Part shown: in pieces, positions 1,312-6,053 of the stretch | Layout: each line of letters opens with the position of its first letter | Position numbering within the stretch: position 1 is the first letter of the stretch | Source of the DNA: a virus | Length of the DNA: 64,000 nucleotides | IMG/VR virus record: IMGVR_UViG_3300025264_000007 | Coordinates: 1-64,000 of that record | Strand: one strand, 5' to 3' | Program-made: the position numbers and the translations under genes | Notes under the pieces: generated by a model | Databases searched by the model: none | Told to the model about the DNA's origin: nothing | The model's input: only the letters and a program-made list of their open reading frames with translations

Positions 1312-1385
1312 TGGTGCCCAATGGAGGTGACGCTCCCCCGTCTACTGGATACAAATCAGTTATTCTGCTGTTGAACTAATCGGGC
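1312..1385 (-). tRNA. tRNA-Thr(TGT), atypical
   Basis: GCCCGAT/ATTGGGC acceptor + ACCA, anticodon loop TT-TGT-AT; D-loop lacks GG, T-loop AGCGTCA non-canonical. Confidence 0.75.
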
Positions 1386-1426: not shown

Positions 1427-1736
1427 TAGAACCGCTAGGACTTGAACCTAGATAGAAACGCTTCAGGTTTGTGCTGGTTTCCCAACTCCCTGGACTATAT
1501 CATCATCTACAGCACAATCTGTTTAGATGTCGGACGCTAATCTTGTATTATGCTGAAAGTTCGTTCAGCCCCAAGTAGTCTCTGCACCTTCCTACCACGC
1601 TTGGTAGGCTTGGCTCAGGATTGCCATACCCCTAAGGGCTTAGGTTTCCCTGAATTCATCCGATTTGCAACAATCATTTCTGACTGAGGTCACCCTTGAT
1701 GAGGCGTTCTCATTAACCAAATTATGATACGGTTCC
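1427..1736 (-). tRNA. Intron-containing tRNA with CAT anticodon, probably tRNA-Ile2 (lysidine); exons 1699-1736 and 1427-1463
   Basis: Spliced form GGAACCG...AACGC-CTCATAA-GCGTT...CTAGG-TTCAAGT-CCTAG-CGGTTCT-A; C29:G41 and C5:G68 pairs, no initiator features, tilS nearby; CCA not encoded. Confidence 0.85.
1464..1698 (-). mobile_element. Group I self-splicing intron (235 nt) inserted after the anticodon (36/37)
   Basis: P1 TCAT/GTGA with U.G at the 5' splice site; P3 TCGGATG/CGTCCGA; P4 region AATTCAGGGAAACCTAAG...TATGGCAATCCTGAGCCAAGC; R GAAGGTGCAGAGACTA; S GATATAGTCCAGGGAGT; terminal CACAAACCTG (omega G). Confidence 0.92.
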
Positions 1737-2402
1737 GTATTCTTTAATAAATTTATCAAACTCTTGATTTACAAATTCAGGGTTATGTTTCCCCCTATCT
1801 TTTATAACATATGGAGTGAACCCTGCCTTTATGATTTCTTTGATCTTGATGCGATCCCTATTTTGTACCTGTTTCACACTGTGTGCTTCAGTTATCTTTT
1901 TGTAATGCCAAACTCCGTTCCACATAACAGCAACCTTGATAGACGGGATAATAACATCGGCATCCCAGCCATTAAACATTGGTTCATTACATAAAACCTC
2001 TTTGTAGACACCGCCGCAAAGCTCGGAAAATAGAATCTCGTTTTTACTTCGCCGTGTATCCTTTTGAACCTCGGCTGAAATCCTGCCTCCTTTTCTTCCC
2101 AACGCTTGCCAATCTCTAAACTTAGCAGCACATTTTCTGCTGCAATATTTCTGTGATCTTTTAGTCTGTGCAACATCAAAATGTTGATCACAACCCTTAC
2201 AAAACCGTTTTACCATTTCAACTGGCTTTCCCATTCCTGATCGGTAGTTCACGCCAGTCATAGTTTTACTTATTTTCTCGTTGATTTCTTTTCTTTTGCT
2301 TTTTGTTGAGAAGCTCCGAGCGCATTCACGACTACAAAACTTTCCATTAGAATATTTGCTGTATTTTACAGCCTCTTTACTATCACAATTCATACATTTC
2401 AT
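1722..2402 (-). CDS. Free-standing homing-endonuclease-like protein (two CxxC...CSxxC Zn motifs + Vsr/DUF559-like nuclease domain)
   Basis: CMNC..FCSREC, CKGC..YCSRKC; C-terminal SKNE..DVIIP..KVAVMWNGVWH..RDRIK..GF. Confidence 0.7.
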   Translation of the reverse strand: MKCMNCDSKEAVKYSKYSNGKFCSRECARSFSTKSKRKEINEKISKTMTGVNYRSGMGKPVEMVKRFCKGCDQHFDVAQTKRSQKYCSRKCAAKFRDWQALGRKGGRISAEVQKDTRRSKNEILFSELCGGVYKEVLCNEPMFNGWDADVIIPSIKVAVMWNGVWHYKKITEAHSVKQVQNRDRIKIKEIIKAGFTPYVIKDRGKHNPEFVNQEFDKFIKEYGTVS

Positions 2403-2519
2403 TTCTTTTCCTCCTATAGTATATAGTCGGCTTGAACTAAAAACGTATAGCTTTGTCTCATTTCCTATTCAGTTTTCAAAAAGCGTCTGATGGTTTGGTA
2501 GCCGCCCCATCACTATAAT

Positions 2520-2547
2520 ACTATAACATATTCTGATTGTGTGTCAA
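2520..2547 (-). promoter_or_regulatory. Sigma70-type promoter for the endonuclease-tRNA transcript
   Basis: TTGACA-16 nt-TATAGT with TG extended -10. Confidence 0.7.
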
Positions 2548-3165
2548 ATCTTTTTCTGTGTTTCCAAGATTACTATACTCTTTTTCTACCAGTTTTCTAA
2601 ATGTTTTTTCGAGCCCTTGATTTACCCTGCGAGCATGCGGCATAATGTCATGCCGTATAATGCTGCGCATGAACTTTCTGTCTGCGTTGGCGGGGTCAAC
2701 CAAGAACGGCACTTCCTTACGCTCGCACCAATCTTCTAGGGAGCGTTTAGAGGTAGAGATAAAGGGTCGAAAAACGTTTTTATTGCGGTAGGGAATAATC
2801 TTACCCTGTCCATGTATTGAAGAGAATAAATACCACTCTATCACATCGTCTAAGTTGTGACCCGTAACGACTGGATCGTGAAAGCTGCGAAACATTTTGT
2901 ACCGCTCATCACGCCAGTGCTCTTCAAGTGATTTGTGCGGAGGACAATCATTATAATTAACTCCTATCACAAAGGGAATATCTCTACTTTCGCAAAAGTT
3001 CTTTACAAATCTTTTACATTTCTTCCCGAAGTCTGTGCCGTGGTCAAAATAGACTGCGGTCACATCGTGATTGTTGCTGAGAAAGTCTAGGATAGCCATT
3101 GAGTCTGGCCCGCCGCTGACGGCAACTGCCAACTCTCTCGGCAACTTTCCCAAAACTTTAAGCAT
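2521..3165 (-). CDS. tilS: tRNA(Ile)-lysidine synthase, minimal catalytic domain
   Basis: PP-loop AVSGGPDS, DHG, RDERY, TGHNLDD..E, RPF, DPAN..FMRSIIR. Confidence 0.9.
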   Translation of the reverse strand: MLKVLGKLPRELAVAVSGGPDSMAILDFLSNNHDVTAVYFDHGTDFGKKCKRFVKNFCESRDIPFVIGVNYNDCPPHKSLEEHWRDERYKMFRSFHDPVVTGHNLDDVIEWYLFSSIHGQGKIIPYRNKNVFRPFISTSKRSLEDWCERKEVPFLVDPANADRKFMRSIIRHDIMPHARRVNQGLEKTFRKLVEKEYSNLGNTEKDLTHNQNML

Positions 3166-3178
3166 TTAAATTCCTTTG

Positions 3179-3253
3179 TGGTCCCGGCAGGACTCGAACC
3201 TGCGACCGACGGTGTAGAAAACCGATGCTCTAATCCAACTGAGCTACGGAACC
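3179..3253 (-). tRNA. tRNA-Arg(TCT)
   Basis: GGTTCCG/CGGGACC acceptor, TAGCTCAGTTGGATTAGAGC D-arm, loop TT-TCT-AC, GGTTCGAGTCC T-arm. Confidence 0.9.
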
Positions 3254-3261
3254 AGATTTGA

Positions 3262-3456
3262 GGAGTTTCGGAACCTACACGCGTAAAAGCAGGTTCTCCC
3301 TGTTACTTTGTATCTAACCCTAAAAGCTGTTTTCCACACGCAACTCCCCGAAGGTATGTGGTTACTGCAAGTAGGGACGCTGGCTCTTTATGTTTCCTGC
3401 CAGATCGGTTCAGGTTTACCCTTGACACTTATCGTCGTCGGGTTTTGCCAATCTCC
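3262..3456 (-). ncRNA. Candidate structured non-coding RNA / leader upstream of tRNA-Arg
   Basis: No long ORF; stems CTGGC/GCCAG, CCACAT/GTGTGG with C-TTCG-G loop, GAACCTGC/GTAGGTTC; ends GGAGATTGG/CCGAAACTCC can pair. Confidence 0.4.
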
Positions 3457-3496
3457 ATTTTGTATCTCCTGTGTTTTGTGTAGCCAATAAATAGAT

Positions 3497-3721
3497 CTAT
3501 AAAAAGTAACCGAGCGCAAACCCGGAAAGAAACAAAGTAGGCATCAACCAACTTGACCTTTCAGCAGTAATTTCGTTTCGCCCGGCTTCAAGCAGAAAAA
3601 GCGGAGAAACTCCCCAATTGGGCTTTTCCAAATCTTCCTGTGTTAGAGTGCCTGCTTCAAGATTGGCCACAATACAATCATGTAATTGCTCCATGTCTTC
3701 AAAATTGTTCCACTGGTCCAT
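3497..3721 (-). CDS. Hypothetical protein with C-terminal membrane anchor
   Basis: SD AGGAGA; hydrophobic C-terminus. Confidence 0.6.
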   Translation of the reverse strand: MDQWNNFEDMEQLHDCIVANLEAGTLTQEDLEKPNWGVSPLFLLEAGRNEITAERSSWLMPTLFLSGFALGYFL

Positions 3722-4864: not shown

Positions 4865-5044
4865 TTAAAACCCGGTAACCTCGGGCGGAAACATATTAGT
4901 TGCTGGGATGGGATAACATTCCATCATATCTTTCGGGACTTCGAAGAAATCCATGTCAATCATAAAGGTCTCCACCGCATCTTGCAGGGTAGGAGCCCAG
5001 ATGGTAAAGATTACGCCGCGGACTTCGATTTGAAAGCAGTTCAT
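4865..5044 (-). CDS. Hypothetical protein (59 aa, not in ORF track)
   Basis: MNCFQIEVRGVIFTIWAPTLQDAVE...; ATGA overlap with upstream gene, SD AAGGA. Confidence 0.55.
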   Translation of the reverse strand: MNCFQIEVRGVIFTIWAPTLQDAVETFMIDMDFFEVPKDMMECYPIPATNMFPPEVTGF

Positions 5045-5268
5045 TTATTTTCCTTTCGTGAACTTTTGTTTCGTTTGCTACGCATATATATCAATTGTTC
5101 CCTCTGCAATTTTTGCAGAGTTCTTGTTCTTCTGTTGCTTATCTTCTTCAACAATTCTCGCTGCTTCTCTGCGTGCTTTGATTTCAGCCACACGATGAAC
5201 ATCAAAGTTCCACCAGGCAAAAGCAGGGCTAATAGAATACCAGCCAGTAGCGTAATTGATGGGATCAC
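5041..5268 (-). CDS. Small membrane protein
   Basis: Hydrophobic N-half, basic C-terminus, SD GAGGAG. Confidence 0.55.
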   Translation of the reverse strand: MIPSITLLAGILLALLLPGGTLMFIVWLKSKHAEKQRELLKKISNRRTRTLQKLQREQLIYMRSKRNKSSRKENK

Positions 5269-5282
5269 TCACTTATACTCCT

Positions 5283-6053
5283 CTATTTCTTTATATAGGT
5301 TTGAAGAGCTAAAATAAGCTCTGCTGGCCCTTGAATGTCGTGGTAAGCGGCGCATTTCATAGCAATATCCACATCATTTCCGTCGGGGGTTATTTTATCC
5401 CCAAAAAATATGCATTGAGCAGGAGACTCTCCTATATTTTGGAGAGCATAGCTTTTATCCCACCCTTCACGCGTCACGTCAATCGATATTTGACCACCGA
5501 GCCTAAATGATAATCCCCATCCACTAAAATCTTCTCGCAACTTATCGATAATCTTTTTTCGTTCTCCGCTTTTTTGGTCCCACTTCACATAATCTTCGCG
5601 CTGGGTAGTGGTGCAGTTTCTGCCAACTACAGAAAAGTTAATTTGGCTTTCTCGCCACTCAACAAATGTTCCGGTCTTAAATTTGGTATGGGTATCTGCC
5701 GCAGTTTTGAGGAGCACGTTAACAATATGATTAATATCCGCGCGCGAGTAGTGGTCAAGCAGGGTCACCTTGTGGATAAGCTCCGGCTCGATAGCTCTAG
5801 TTTCATCATCCATATCCAGGCGTGTATTATAAACTCTCGTTCCGTTGCATGCAAACACGCGGTCAAACACGTTGAGTAAAGTAGCGTTTGGAATTTGCTC
5901 TTCTATTTTGGCGAAGTCTGATCCTGTTACTAGATACTTTTTAGATGCCATCGGGAGCGATTCGAGCGCGGTCACCACCTCCTCGGAAATTCTTTGGCGA
6001 GGGTCGGTAAGTGTTCCATCCATATCAAACAAAAATGCTTTGGCCTTTTTCAT
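5283..6053 (-). CDS. HAD-IIB phosphomannomutase (eukaryotic PMM-like)
   Basis: FDMDGTL, VTGSD..K..EQ, GTFVEWR..INFSVVGR, GGQISID, WDK, FFGDK..GND; start at ATG 6053 (ATGA overlap). Confidence 0.88.
   Translation of the reverse strand: MKKAKAFLFDMDGTLTDPRQRISEEVVTALESLPMASKKYLVTGSDFAKIEEQIPNATLLNVFDRVFACNGTRVYNTRLDMDDETRAIEPELIHKVTLLDHYSRADINHIVNVLLKTAADTHTKFKTGTFVEWRESQINFSVVGRNCTTTQREDYVKWDQKSGERKKIIDKLREDFSGWGLSFRLGGQISIDVTREGWDKSYALQNIGESPAQCIFFGDKITPDGNDVDIAMKCAAYHDIQGPAELILALQTYIKK

Follow-up and report, generated by a model that had tools for sequence, protein, structure and literature searches.

Layout of the locus

The window considered here is a stretch of 64,000 nucleotides (nt) from an uncultured large marine phage, positions 1 to 64,000 of IMG/VR record IMGVR_UViG_3300025264_000007, and forms part of an 80.6-kb viral contig with an estimated completeness of 40%. 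Near its beginning lie a gene for a small TilS protein, an open reading frame (ORF) for a putative free-standing endonuclease and a tRNA gene with the anticodon CAU that is split by a group I intron, all of them on the minus strand (Table 1). This arrangement had been described in a first-pass annotation of the letters of the window, and the coordinates given there agree throughout with those found here.

Table 1. Positions of the genes, tRNA parts and intron elements of the locus, numbered from the first nucleotide of the window (aa, amino acids; AF2, AlphaFold).
Feature	Position	Strand	Details and basis
mini-TilS gene	2521-3165	(-)	214-aa PP-loop protein, SGGPDS at residues 17-22
tilS-nuclease spacer	2403-2520	(-)	strong Shine-Dalgarno sequence AGGAGG, 8 nt before the ATG
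Putative free-standing endonuclease ORF, 226 aa	1722-2402	(-)	ORF list; last 15 nt, including the stop, are tRNA positions 1-15
Nuclease N-terminal half, two FCS-type zinc fingers	2118-2402	(-)	family-profile matches
Nuclease C-terminal Vsr-like domain, residues 117-226	1725-2054	(-)	AF2 model, Foldseek, VIA
Whole tRNA(CAU) gene	1427-1736	(-)	sequence reading
tRNA exon 1	1699-1736	(-)	acceptor GGAACCG, D-arm UCAU/AUGA, anticodon stem AACGC, loop CUCAU
Group I intron, 235 nt, ORF-less	1464-1698	(-)	RF00028 and covariation
P1	1690-1702	(-)	exon UCAU and first intron C (1702-1698) pair with internal guide GGUGA (1694-1690)
P7 5' strand, GACUA	1580-1576	(-)	alignment A3
Extra hairpin between P7 5' strand and P3'	1542-1575	(-)	alignment A3, columns 156-200
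P3', GUCCGA	1535-1530	(-)	alignment A3
P7 3' strand, UAGUC	1497-1493	(-)	
P9 hairpin, GUUGG-GAAA-CCAGC	1486-1473	(-)	followed by CACAAACCUG
Terminal G of the intron	1464	(-)	
tRNA exon 2	1427-1463	(-)	AA, stem GCGUU, variable loop, T-arm CUAGG/CCUAG, acceptor CGGUUCU, discriminator A

The tRNA genes form a small operon in the order tRNA-Arg(UCU), tilS, tRNA(CAU), tRNA-Thr(UGU) and tRNA-Gly(UCC), in which all tRNAs read A-ending codons; a scan of the locus with Rfam returns one group I intron and three tRNAs. Exon 1 of the tRNA(CAU) ends in CGCCUCAU and exon 2 starts with AAGCGUU, the intron between them beginning with CAAGGGUGACC and ending in CACAAACCUG. The nuclease ORF terminates with GGA ACC GUA UCA UAA inside the D-arm of the tRNA, which bears out the earlier observation that the end of this gene is at the same time the acceptor and D-arm of the tRNA. 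An independent contig from DNA run X10 spans positions 1545-2490 with the identical arrangement, and the identical nuclease protein (P0001) is encoded on seven contigs. Homology to a variant contig breaks at about 2454-2456, as indicated by loose ends and a weak joint in DNA run X14. The joint itself (1429 to 2454) was rejected as a variant allele, being too weak, with 24 letters on its short side and unknown letters in between, and the coverage holes over the nuclease in runs X11, X12 and X14 are meaningless as signs of nuclease-less variants, as these runs consist of short contigs. The tRNA-Thr(UGU) gene (1315-1385, minus strand) was missed by ARAGORN and reaches only 41.9 bits in Rfam; its T-loop is GCGUCAC instead of the usual UUCGAAU, and is canonical in the close relatives L086 and L090.

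The group I intron of the tRNA(CAU) gene

The intron matches the Rfam group I model RF00028 from end to end (model positions 1-253) with 84.7 bits, well over the gathering score of 50, and an E-value of 4.1e-20. Together with the coordinates, this covariance-model search, which had been put forward as a check in the first-pass annotation, confirms that the tRNA(CAU) is split after CAU by an intron of 235 nt, and the ORF list holds no minus-strand ORF of at least 40 aa inside it. The insertion follows the third anticodon nucleotide (CUCAU-intron-AA). Across 20 aligned CAU introns, the GUG of the internal guide is kept in all 20, both the wobble pair at the 5' splice site in P1 (U1699-G1693) and the terminal G (...CCUG) hold, and compensatory double changes are found in 13 of the 25 consensus pairs (in P4, P6, P6a and P9), with P7 invariant. 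ARAGORN, when introns were allowed, called a tRNA-Gln(CUG) instead, with boundaries shifted by 3 nt. This call was rejected because the intron would then end in C and because the shifted boundaries fail in the homologs, including that of Klebsiella phage Muenster; homologous introns all give CUCAU-(...G)-AA, and only the CAU reading yields the U -1:G pair in P1 together with a terminal G. The intron is predicted to self-splice in a GTP-dependent manner and, since C34 lies 2 nt from the splice site, lysidine modification must follow splicing.

The earlier description of the intron as Azoarcus-like stands for the insertion site, the core and the 3' end, and does not extend to the architecture. 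With Azoarcus-type introns of the 'Ile2.5Ug' tRNA class (as defined by Williams 2020) it shares the CUCAU-AA site, the U -1 with its GUG guide, the terminal G, the lack of an ORF, the P4-P6, J6/7-P7 and P9 sequences and the CACAAAnnnG 3' end, a likeness judged against bacterial CAU introns of this class from other sources. It differs from them in its location in a phage genome and in its length, which is 235 nt as opposed to the ~203-212 nt of betaproteobacterial CAU introns. In the compact Azoarcus-type architecture of ~200 nt, P7 leads directly to P3', whereas here an extra hairpin of 34 nt (1575-1542) separates the two; the short bacterial CAU introns in alignment A3 do not have it. The stem of this hairpin is kept through two-sided changes (CUUG/CAAG, GGUG/CACC, CUGG/CCAG, UCUG/CAGA and CCUG/CAGG) in the long form of the intron, whose members are the window, Klebsiella phage Muenster, several viral contigs and metagenome-assembled genomes (MAGs) of Hydrogenophaga and Omnitrophota. 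The best full-length bacterial match to the intron, from the Hydrogenophaga MAG, is 69% identical.

A putative nuclease with FCS zinc fingers and a Vsr-like domain

The nuclease has 718 database homologs, none of which carries a Pfam domain or a functional name, and GenBank phage records contain one homolog only, in megaphage Lak-C1. A phmmer search of the protein against the PDB gave nothing useful, and only the family profile and the fold search produced matches. The family profile matches the FCS fingers 2W0T (E 0.0015) and 2L8E, with the pattern CxxC...FCSxxC and invariant cysteines, and PHROG_1271, 'HNH endonuclease', matches residues 2-118 at 4.4e-8. No Pfam match to NUMOD was obtained in the nuclease, whose N-terminal half holds FCS-type fingers instead of NUMOD or helix-turn-helix (HTH) elements; on the strength of these motifs, this half is taken as a putative nucleic-acid-binding module. 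In the AF2 model, which has a confidence (pLDDT) of 86, residues 117-226 are predicted to adopt the Vsr fold. Foldseek gives a probability of ~1 to the Vsr structures 1CW0 and 1VSR and to I-Bth0305I (3R3P), and VIA reports Z 10.3 for Vsr (root-mean-square deviation 3.2, 107 residues aligned) and Z 9.5 for I-Bth0305I (3.8, 97 aligned).

Within this domain, E122, D147/D149, N162, H166 and D183 are invariant in 33 aligned family members. According to the family profile, D149, N162, H166 and D183 align with D196, N208, H213 and D222 of I-Bth0305I, while E122 was matched to E170 by position, from the description in the paper on that enzyme; N162 stands at the position of Vsr His64. It had been feared that the Met in the motif VAVMWNG would leave the nuclease inactive. 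This concern is unfounded, since the position is Leu, Met or Ile in every member (AVLWNG in the family, AVMWNG in the window) and Phe62 in Vsr, so that the Met is a family trait and not a lesion. The proposal of a free-standing homing endonuclease gains support from the Vsr/I-Bth0305I fold, from catalytic residues that are conserved and from the fact that close relatives lack the gene; that the protein cleaves DNA, and at which site, is a prediction from these features.

Among known systems, the I-Bth0305I/EDxHD enzymes (PDB 3R3P; PMC3239194), which include free-standing phage members such as Hef, resemble the nuclease in their Vsr-like fold (Z 9.5, 21% identity), in the Glu, Asp, Asn, His and Asp at matching positions, in the combination of a binding module with a nuclease domain, in their occurrence in phages and in the presence/absence behaviour of a mobile gene. 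The similarity in sequence to I-Bth0305I is marginal (profile E 0.075). I-Bth0305I-type enzymes possess NUMOD/HTH binding motifs and an extra acidic residue where FCS fingers and Leu/Met are found here; the window's nuclease gene is free-standing beside tRNA genes and not contained in an intron or intein. Because it has neither the extra acidic residue nor a NUMOD binding region, the protein lies outside strict EDxHD membership and is filed, as far as its sequence allows, as a new branch related to EDxHD/Vsr-like homing endonucleases. I-Ssp6803I likewise belongs to the restriction-fold superfamily of nucleases and is associated with tRNA genes of the CAU anticodon and with a group I intron in the anticodon loop, but it is cyanobacterial, is encoded inside the intron and has another domain make-up, and no sequence or fold match to it was seen. 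Free-standing endonuclease genes among phage tRNA genes are also represented by SegB of T4 and the F-Tfl enzymes of T5, which are thought to promote inheritance of the tRNA region (PMC2330249); these belong to other catalytic families (GIY-YIG and HNH, respectively), with no reported tie to one anticodon class.

A one-domain TilS and the identity of its neighbouring tRNA

The claim that a TilS gene adjoins the nuclease (3165-2521) holds, as its product scores 111.7 bits with TIGR02432, over a cut-off of 93.6, and matches PF01171 at 2.8e-29. The best PDB matches are TilS structures (1WY5, 3A2K and 1NI5), aligned only to their residues ~20-228, and the full-length TilS model NF007942 gives 47 against a cut-off of 606. 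The phage protein corresponds to the N-domain of TilS only, with the tRNA-binding domains CTD1 and CTD2 absent. It has the PP-loop catalytic domain in common with the TilS of the jumbo phages PA5oct and MIJ3 (PMC6892783) and with the type II TilS of Aquifex aeolicus (1WY5), and is 41% identical to the annotated TilS of these two Pseudomonas phages, that of PA5oct being also of ~200 aa. Cellular TilS, in contrast, has C-terminal tRNA-binding domains, all of which are missing here. The PA5oct tilS adjoins no annotated tRNA gene, whereas that of the window is directly linked to the tRNA(CAU); the linkage of tilS to a tRNA gene is therefore not universal among phages.

The spliced product is a normal cloverleaf of 75 nt with the anticodon CAU and no encoded CCA. 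Its pair A3:U70 marks tRNA-Ile(CAU) and excludes the Met and fMet types, and its C5:G68 is frequent in tRNA-Ile(CAU) (Silva 2006, PMC1635315). Given these two pairs, the neighbouring tRNAs for A-ending codons and the recurrent pairing of tilS with tRNA(CAU), the tRNA is probably tRNA-Ile2, as the first-pass annotation had proposed. AUA makes up 16.5% of the Ile codons of the contig (9.3 per 1000 codons), a usage that is compatible with a need for AUA decoding and decides nothing. The phage TilS would form lysidine at C34 of this tRNA, to judge from the sequence of both. A TilS of a single domain, tied to its likely substrate, offers a compact system in which to see how little protein can separate tRNA-Ile2 from tRNA-Met.

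Two insertions relative to close relatives

Nine viral contigs encode a TilS that is 73-86% identical to that of the window, and all of them keep the order tilS, tRNA(CAU). In six of the nine, the tRNA(CAU) follows tilS within ~15 nt and precedes tRNA-Thr(UGU), with tRNA-Gly(UCC) mostly next and tRNA-Arg(UCU) mostly just upstream. Neither the nuclease gene nor the intron is present in any of the 15 loci with related TilS. As the close relatives keep the tilS-tRNA(CAU) pair without either, both are polymorphic insertions, and on this comparison the window differs from its kin by two of them, the nuclease gene at the 5' edge of the tRNA and the intron in its anticodon loop, which is the usual signature of mobile DNA.

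In the contigs L091-L093, this unusual type of tRNA is present as an uninterrupted allele, with the D-arm UCAU/AUGA (GUAU/AUGC in L092), a G1-U72 pair, CGCCUCAUAAGCG in the anticodon arm and G3 or A3. There it is the next tRNA gene downstream of tilS, after 1-1.5 kb of inserted genes. In L091 (4590-6122), these are a 205-aa ORF and a DPPY-type DNA methyltransferase. The methyltransferase ORF also reads into the tRNA and ends at the UAA of the D-arm (...CGPVS, then the stop), and since it fills the same slot as the nuclease of the window, the 5' junction of the tRNA is a recurrent insertion point.

Association of the nuclease family with CAU and UAU tRNA genes

The genomic surroundings of the nuclease family were compiled in a viral sample of 80 loci, reduced to 58 by clustering at 90%, and in an independent sample of 42 metagenome loci. 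The nearest tRNA within 130 nt reads CAU in 31 and UAU in 6 of the viral loci and, with four more that a plain scan missed, the count amounts to 41 of 58; in the metagenome loci, a CAU/UAU tRNA lies within ~130 nt in 28 of 42. Measured against the 19% share of CAU/UAU among all tRNAs in the viral loci, the respective p values are ~1e-17 and 2e-11. Overall, the family adjoins a tRNA(CAU) or tRNA(UAU) in ~70% of about 100 phage loci. The nuclease gene can precede or follow the tRNA, on either strand, and frequently overlaps with it. ORFs that read into the tRNA stop at the first in-frame stop codon there, leading to recurrent overlaps of 10, 15 and 38 nt, which correspond to a UAG at tRNA positions 8-10, to the D-arm stop and to the UAA of the anticodon loop, respectively. 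ORFs with no stop codon of their own were seen in L005, L016, L019, L034, L046, L262, L264, L267, L271 and others; RNase P processing of a nuclease-tRNA co-transcript would then remove the stop codon of the ORF.

The adjoining tRNAs are mixed in type. Initiator-like tRNAs (C3:G70, a 1:72 mismatch and often A11 and G12) are in the majority, next to about nine of Ile2-like type and several tRNA-Ile(UAU), and the anticodon loop YUYAUAA is the sole sequence that the initiator-like, Ile2-like and UAU tRNAs have in common and that other tRNAs do not share. Introns, on the other hand, are scarce: Rfam finds a group I intron in only 4 of 60 nuclease loci. Co-occurrence in relatives, suggested in the first-pass annotation as a way to probe a tie between nuclease and intron, gives a divided answer. 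Five family members do lie beside an intron-bearing tRNA (in the window, L024 and L039, as the second paralog of L026 and, with a UAU tRNA, in L028), against ~65 non-redundant members, including the closest relatives (51-59% identity), that adjoin intron-less CAU/UAU tRNA genes, and of the 23 intron copies found independently, only 3 have the nuclease beside them. What the family tracks is the CAU-type tRNA gene and not the intron, and this tracking fits a homing enzyme with its site in or beside such genes.

Some of these loci deserve a separate mention. L026 encodes two nuclease paralogs (3001-3627 and 4933-5520), 43% and 40% identical to that of the window, which converge on different tRNA(CAU) genes, one initiator-like and one intron-split and Ile2-like. 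Its initiator-like tRNA(CAU) (L026:3650-3749, minus strand) has a GCGGG acceptor, a 1:72 mismatch and a long variable arm, and reaches up to 100 nt; the same unusual class-II-like shape occurs in L031, L037, L059, L264 and L266. The 'introns' called by ARAGORN in L064-L070 were discarded, as Rfam finds an ordinary tRNA(CAU) of 71 nt there.

Interpretation of the locus

The locus is best explained as a phage module for AUA decoding that has been invaded by two separate selfish elements, a reading to which a probability of about 0.7 is assigned. It builds on the observed anatomy, family memberships, presence/absence polymorphism and association with CAU/UAU tRNA genes, to which it adds a mechanism. 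The module would consist of the one-domain TilS and its probable substrate tRNA-Ile2(CAU) within the small tRNA operon. One element would be the ORF-less group I intron at the Ile2.5Ug site, which must self-splice before an anticodon loop exists; after splicing, TilS would convert C34 to lysidine, and the tRNA would then read AUA as Ile. The other would be a gene for a homing-type endonuclease whose insertion point is exactly the 5' edge of the tRNA gene; the protein would bind through its two FCS zinc fingers and carry out catalysis with its Vsr/I-Bth0305I-like domain. This endonuclease most likely cuts the CAU/UAU tRNA gene or its flank in phage genomes that lack the endonuclease during co-infection, and its gene would then be copied in by recombinational repair, carrying along neighbouring markers, here the intron and tilS. 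The literature already covers, one by one, the class of tRNA-Ile2 introns, collaborative homing, phage TilS and Vsr-like homing endonucleases; the present analysis contributes the endonuclease family and the link of this family to a single anticodon class, which constitutes a concrete and testable target for a new homing enzyme.

Several observations weigh against this reading. In the nuclease, the acidic residue that I-Bth0305I-type enzymes have at the position of Vsr Phe62 is Leu, Met or Ile, and the fold also matches RNA-binding RAP domains; moreover, most tRNAs beside family members are initiator-like rather than Ile2. The tRNA of the window has no C4:G69 and has an unusual D-arm (UCAU/AUGA), and U12:A23, presumably part of the identity set of E. 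coli isoleucyl-tRNA synthetase, is absent from it. Finally, the C-terminal domains of cellular TilS separate tRNA-Ile2 from tRNA-Met, and deletion of CTD2 lowers activity (PMC11947777), whereas the phage TilS is without the domains that make this distinction.

The alternative closest in content is collaborative homing, already outlined in the first-pass annotation, whereby the nuclease cuts intron-less tRNA(CAU) genes at or near the intron site, the intron makes its carrier immune and both spread as a team. The side-by-side position of an ORF-less intron and a free-standing endonuclease gene, both missing in close relatives, speaks for it, as do the five family members beside intron-bearing tRNAs and the YUYAUAA loop, which is exactly the position of the intron and an obvious candidate site. 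The nuclease was seen only beside ORF-less intron copies (4 of 13, versus 0 of 11 copies with their own HNH gene), a difference that is not significant (p = 0.098). Precedents are reportedly the psbA intron of cyanophage S-PM2 with F-CphI and the DNA polymerase intron of phage PhiI with F-TslI. Like the window, the F-CphI (named in PMC6083498) and F-TslI systems pair a group I intron that has no ORF with an endonuclease gene standing free next to the split gene, and relatives have neither; there the interrupted gene codes for a protein and here for a tRNA, and the family of the window is mostly found beside intron-less targets. It is this last preference, with intron-less CAU/UAU tRNAs accounting for so much of the 41 of 58 viral and 28 of 42 metagenome loci, that leaves the intron unsupported as what protects the carrier: with ~65 members beside uninterrupted genes, the nuclease does not need the intron for its own protection. 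Since, in addition, the nuclease adjoins only 3 of the 23 intron copies, teamwork of the two elements is judged unlikely. A somewhat less doubtful, still tentative proposal is that a so far undescribed family with FCS fingers and a Vsr domain (more than 700 members, almost all in uncultured large phages) homes to CAU/UAU tRNA genes through the DNA of the anticodon stem-loop, in which case an intron between CAU and AA would split the site. If true, collaborative homing of an intron and an endonuclease would here be seen for the first time in a tRNA, and the intron would be among the first group I introns documented for phage tRNAs; in any event, the locus is a natural setting in which to ask whether a gene next door confers mobility or immunity on an ORF-less intron.

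The remaining alternatives concern single components. The tRNA could be an elongator tRNA-Met, with the phage TilS acting on another tRNA, either of the host or encoded in the missing ~60% of the genome. Methionyl-tRNA synthetase reads the CAU anticodon by default, the lack of C4:G69 and the atypical D-arm would suit this view, and in other close relatives the gene directly behind tilS encodes an Ile2-like tRNA of more classical type (GGGGGAU..., stem CUCGA/UCGAU). It is nevertheless rather improbable in the light of A3:U70, which excludes both Met types (Silva 2006, PMC1635315), of the place of the same tRNA type, also with G3 or A3, as the next tRNA gene after tilS in L091-L093, of the neighbouring phage tRNAs, all for A-ending codons, and of the residence of this intron class in Ile2 genes in bacteria. 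The Vsr-like protein might, in turn, be an RNA-binding or RNA-processing factor for the neighbouring tRNA, such as a splicing helper or a factor for the processing or stability of pre-tRNA. Its structure matches RNA-binding RAP/FASTK domains with Z 8.4-10.1, FCS zinc fingers can bind RNA and the gene shows tight linkage to a single class of tRNA genes; but the catalytic residues of Vsr and I-Bth0305I are invariant in 33 of 33 aligned members, most partner tRNAs are intron-less, the location on either side of the tRNA and in either orientation suits a mobile gene better than a co-transcribed partner, and the tRNA evidently does not need the nuclease gene, which is missing from close relatives that keep the tRNA. 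Such a role is accordingly regarded as very improbable. Least probable is a function of the intron as a regulatory gate that times AUA decoding or, as the first-pass annotation had suggested, as a shield of the anticodon loop from host anticodon nucleases. It is the anatomy that invites this idea, with C34 at 2 nt from the splice site, so that any modification of it must come after splicing. Masking of the loop is unnecessary, however, given that close relatives operate this tilS-tRNA module with an uninterrupted tRNA. The protection would also be lost as soon as splicing had released the tRNA for use, and the intron family has the habits of mobile DNA, in that some copies bear HNH genes and many different tRNAs serve as hosts.

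Related introns in other phages and in bacteria

A search of viral sequences with a pattern derived from the 3' end of the intron retrieved 23 viral contigs, every match lying in the context of a tRNA 3' exon. Twelve of these introns are ORF-less (201-244 nt), seven measure 450-773 nt and four are unmapped; the call of a 349-nt intron in L104 is doubtful. The ORFs of five copies match Pfam HNH_3, and in view of these HNH-encoding relatives the window copy, though itself ORF-less, belongs to a family in which fully equipped mobile introns also occur. In L101, L106, L114 and L121, tilS directly adjoins the intron-bearing tRNA(CAU). The ORF of L120 matches only an HTH domain; it is an 87-aa frame (3289-3552, minus strand) in an intron copy of 450 nt, carries an FCS-type motif (FCSVQC) besides the HTH domain and may be the remnant of an intron-encoded endonuclease with the same kind of zinc finger.

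When the 3' pattern was relaxed, at least 120 bacterial contigs were found, including relatives from Burkholderiales, Rhodocyclaceae and cyanobacteria, with tRNA-Arg(CCU), tRNA(CAU), tRNA-Thr(GGU), tRNA-Arg(UCU) and others as host genes. Where the bacterial host gene reads CAU, it is a classical tRNA-Ile2 gene, from Betaproteobacteria and other groups, and the intron mostly measures 202-212 nt. Cultured Klebsiella and E. coli jumbo phages also carry unannotated, intron-split tRNA(CAU) genes of the same kind. In Klebsiella phage Muenster (MT708547.1, ~302.8-303.1 kb; L002:2405-2719, minus strand), such a gene, with a group I intron of 231 nt that scores 104 bits with RF00028, lies between the annotated tRNA-Asn and tRNA-Ser, and intron matches of a similar kind come from Klebsiella phages KP13-7, phiKp_21 and RCIP0023, as well as from E. 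coli phages TH47 and Turkey5. A review of 2014 placed every phage group I intron then known in protein-coding genes, despite the many tRNA genes of phages (PMC3984707), and no later report of group I introns in phage tRNA genes was found in the searchable literature. The window, the 23 further viral contigs and the cultured jumbo phages together show that tRNA introns are common in large phages.

Further candidates came to light in the loci surveyed. ARAGORN calls introns of 210-226 nt in a tRNA-Ile(UAU), between U34 and A35 (L028:2413-2696), in a tRNA-Asn(GUU) (L036:2272-2571) and in a tRNA-Glu(UUC) (L041:4967-5267), all of which are either under the Rfam gathering score or not listed there. 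In L081 (4391-5036), a transfer-messenger RNA (tmRNA) match overlaps a group I intron match, which is possibly an intron-split tmRNA gene. The loci L081, L013 (96-479) and L061 (4484-4887) hold, in addition, two GOLLD RNAs (227 and 296 bits), further tmRNAs and small signal recognition particle RNAs.

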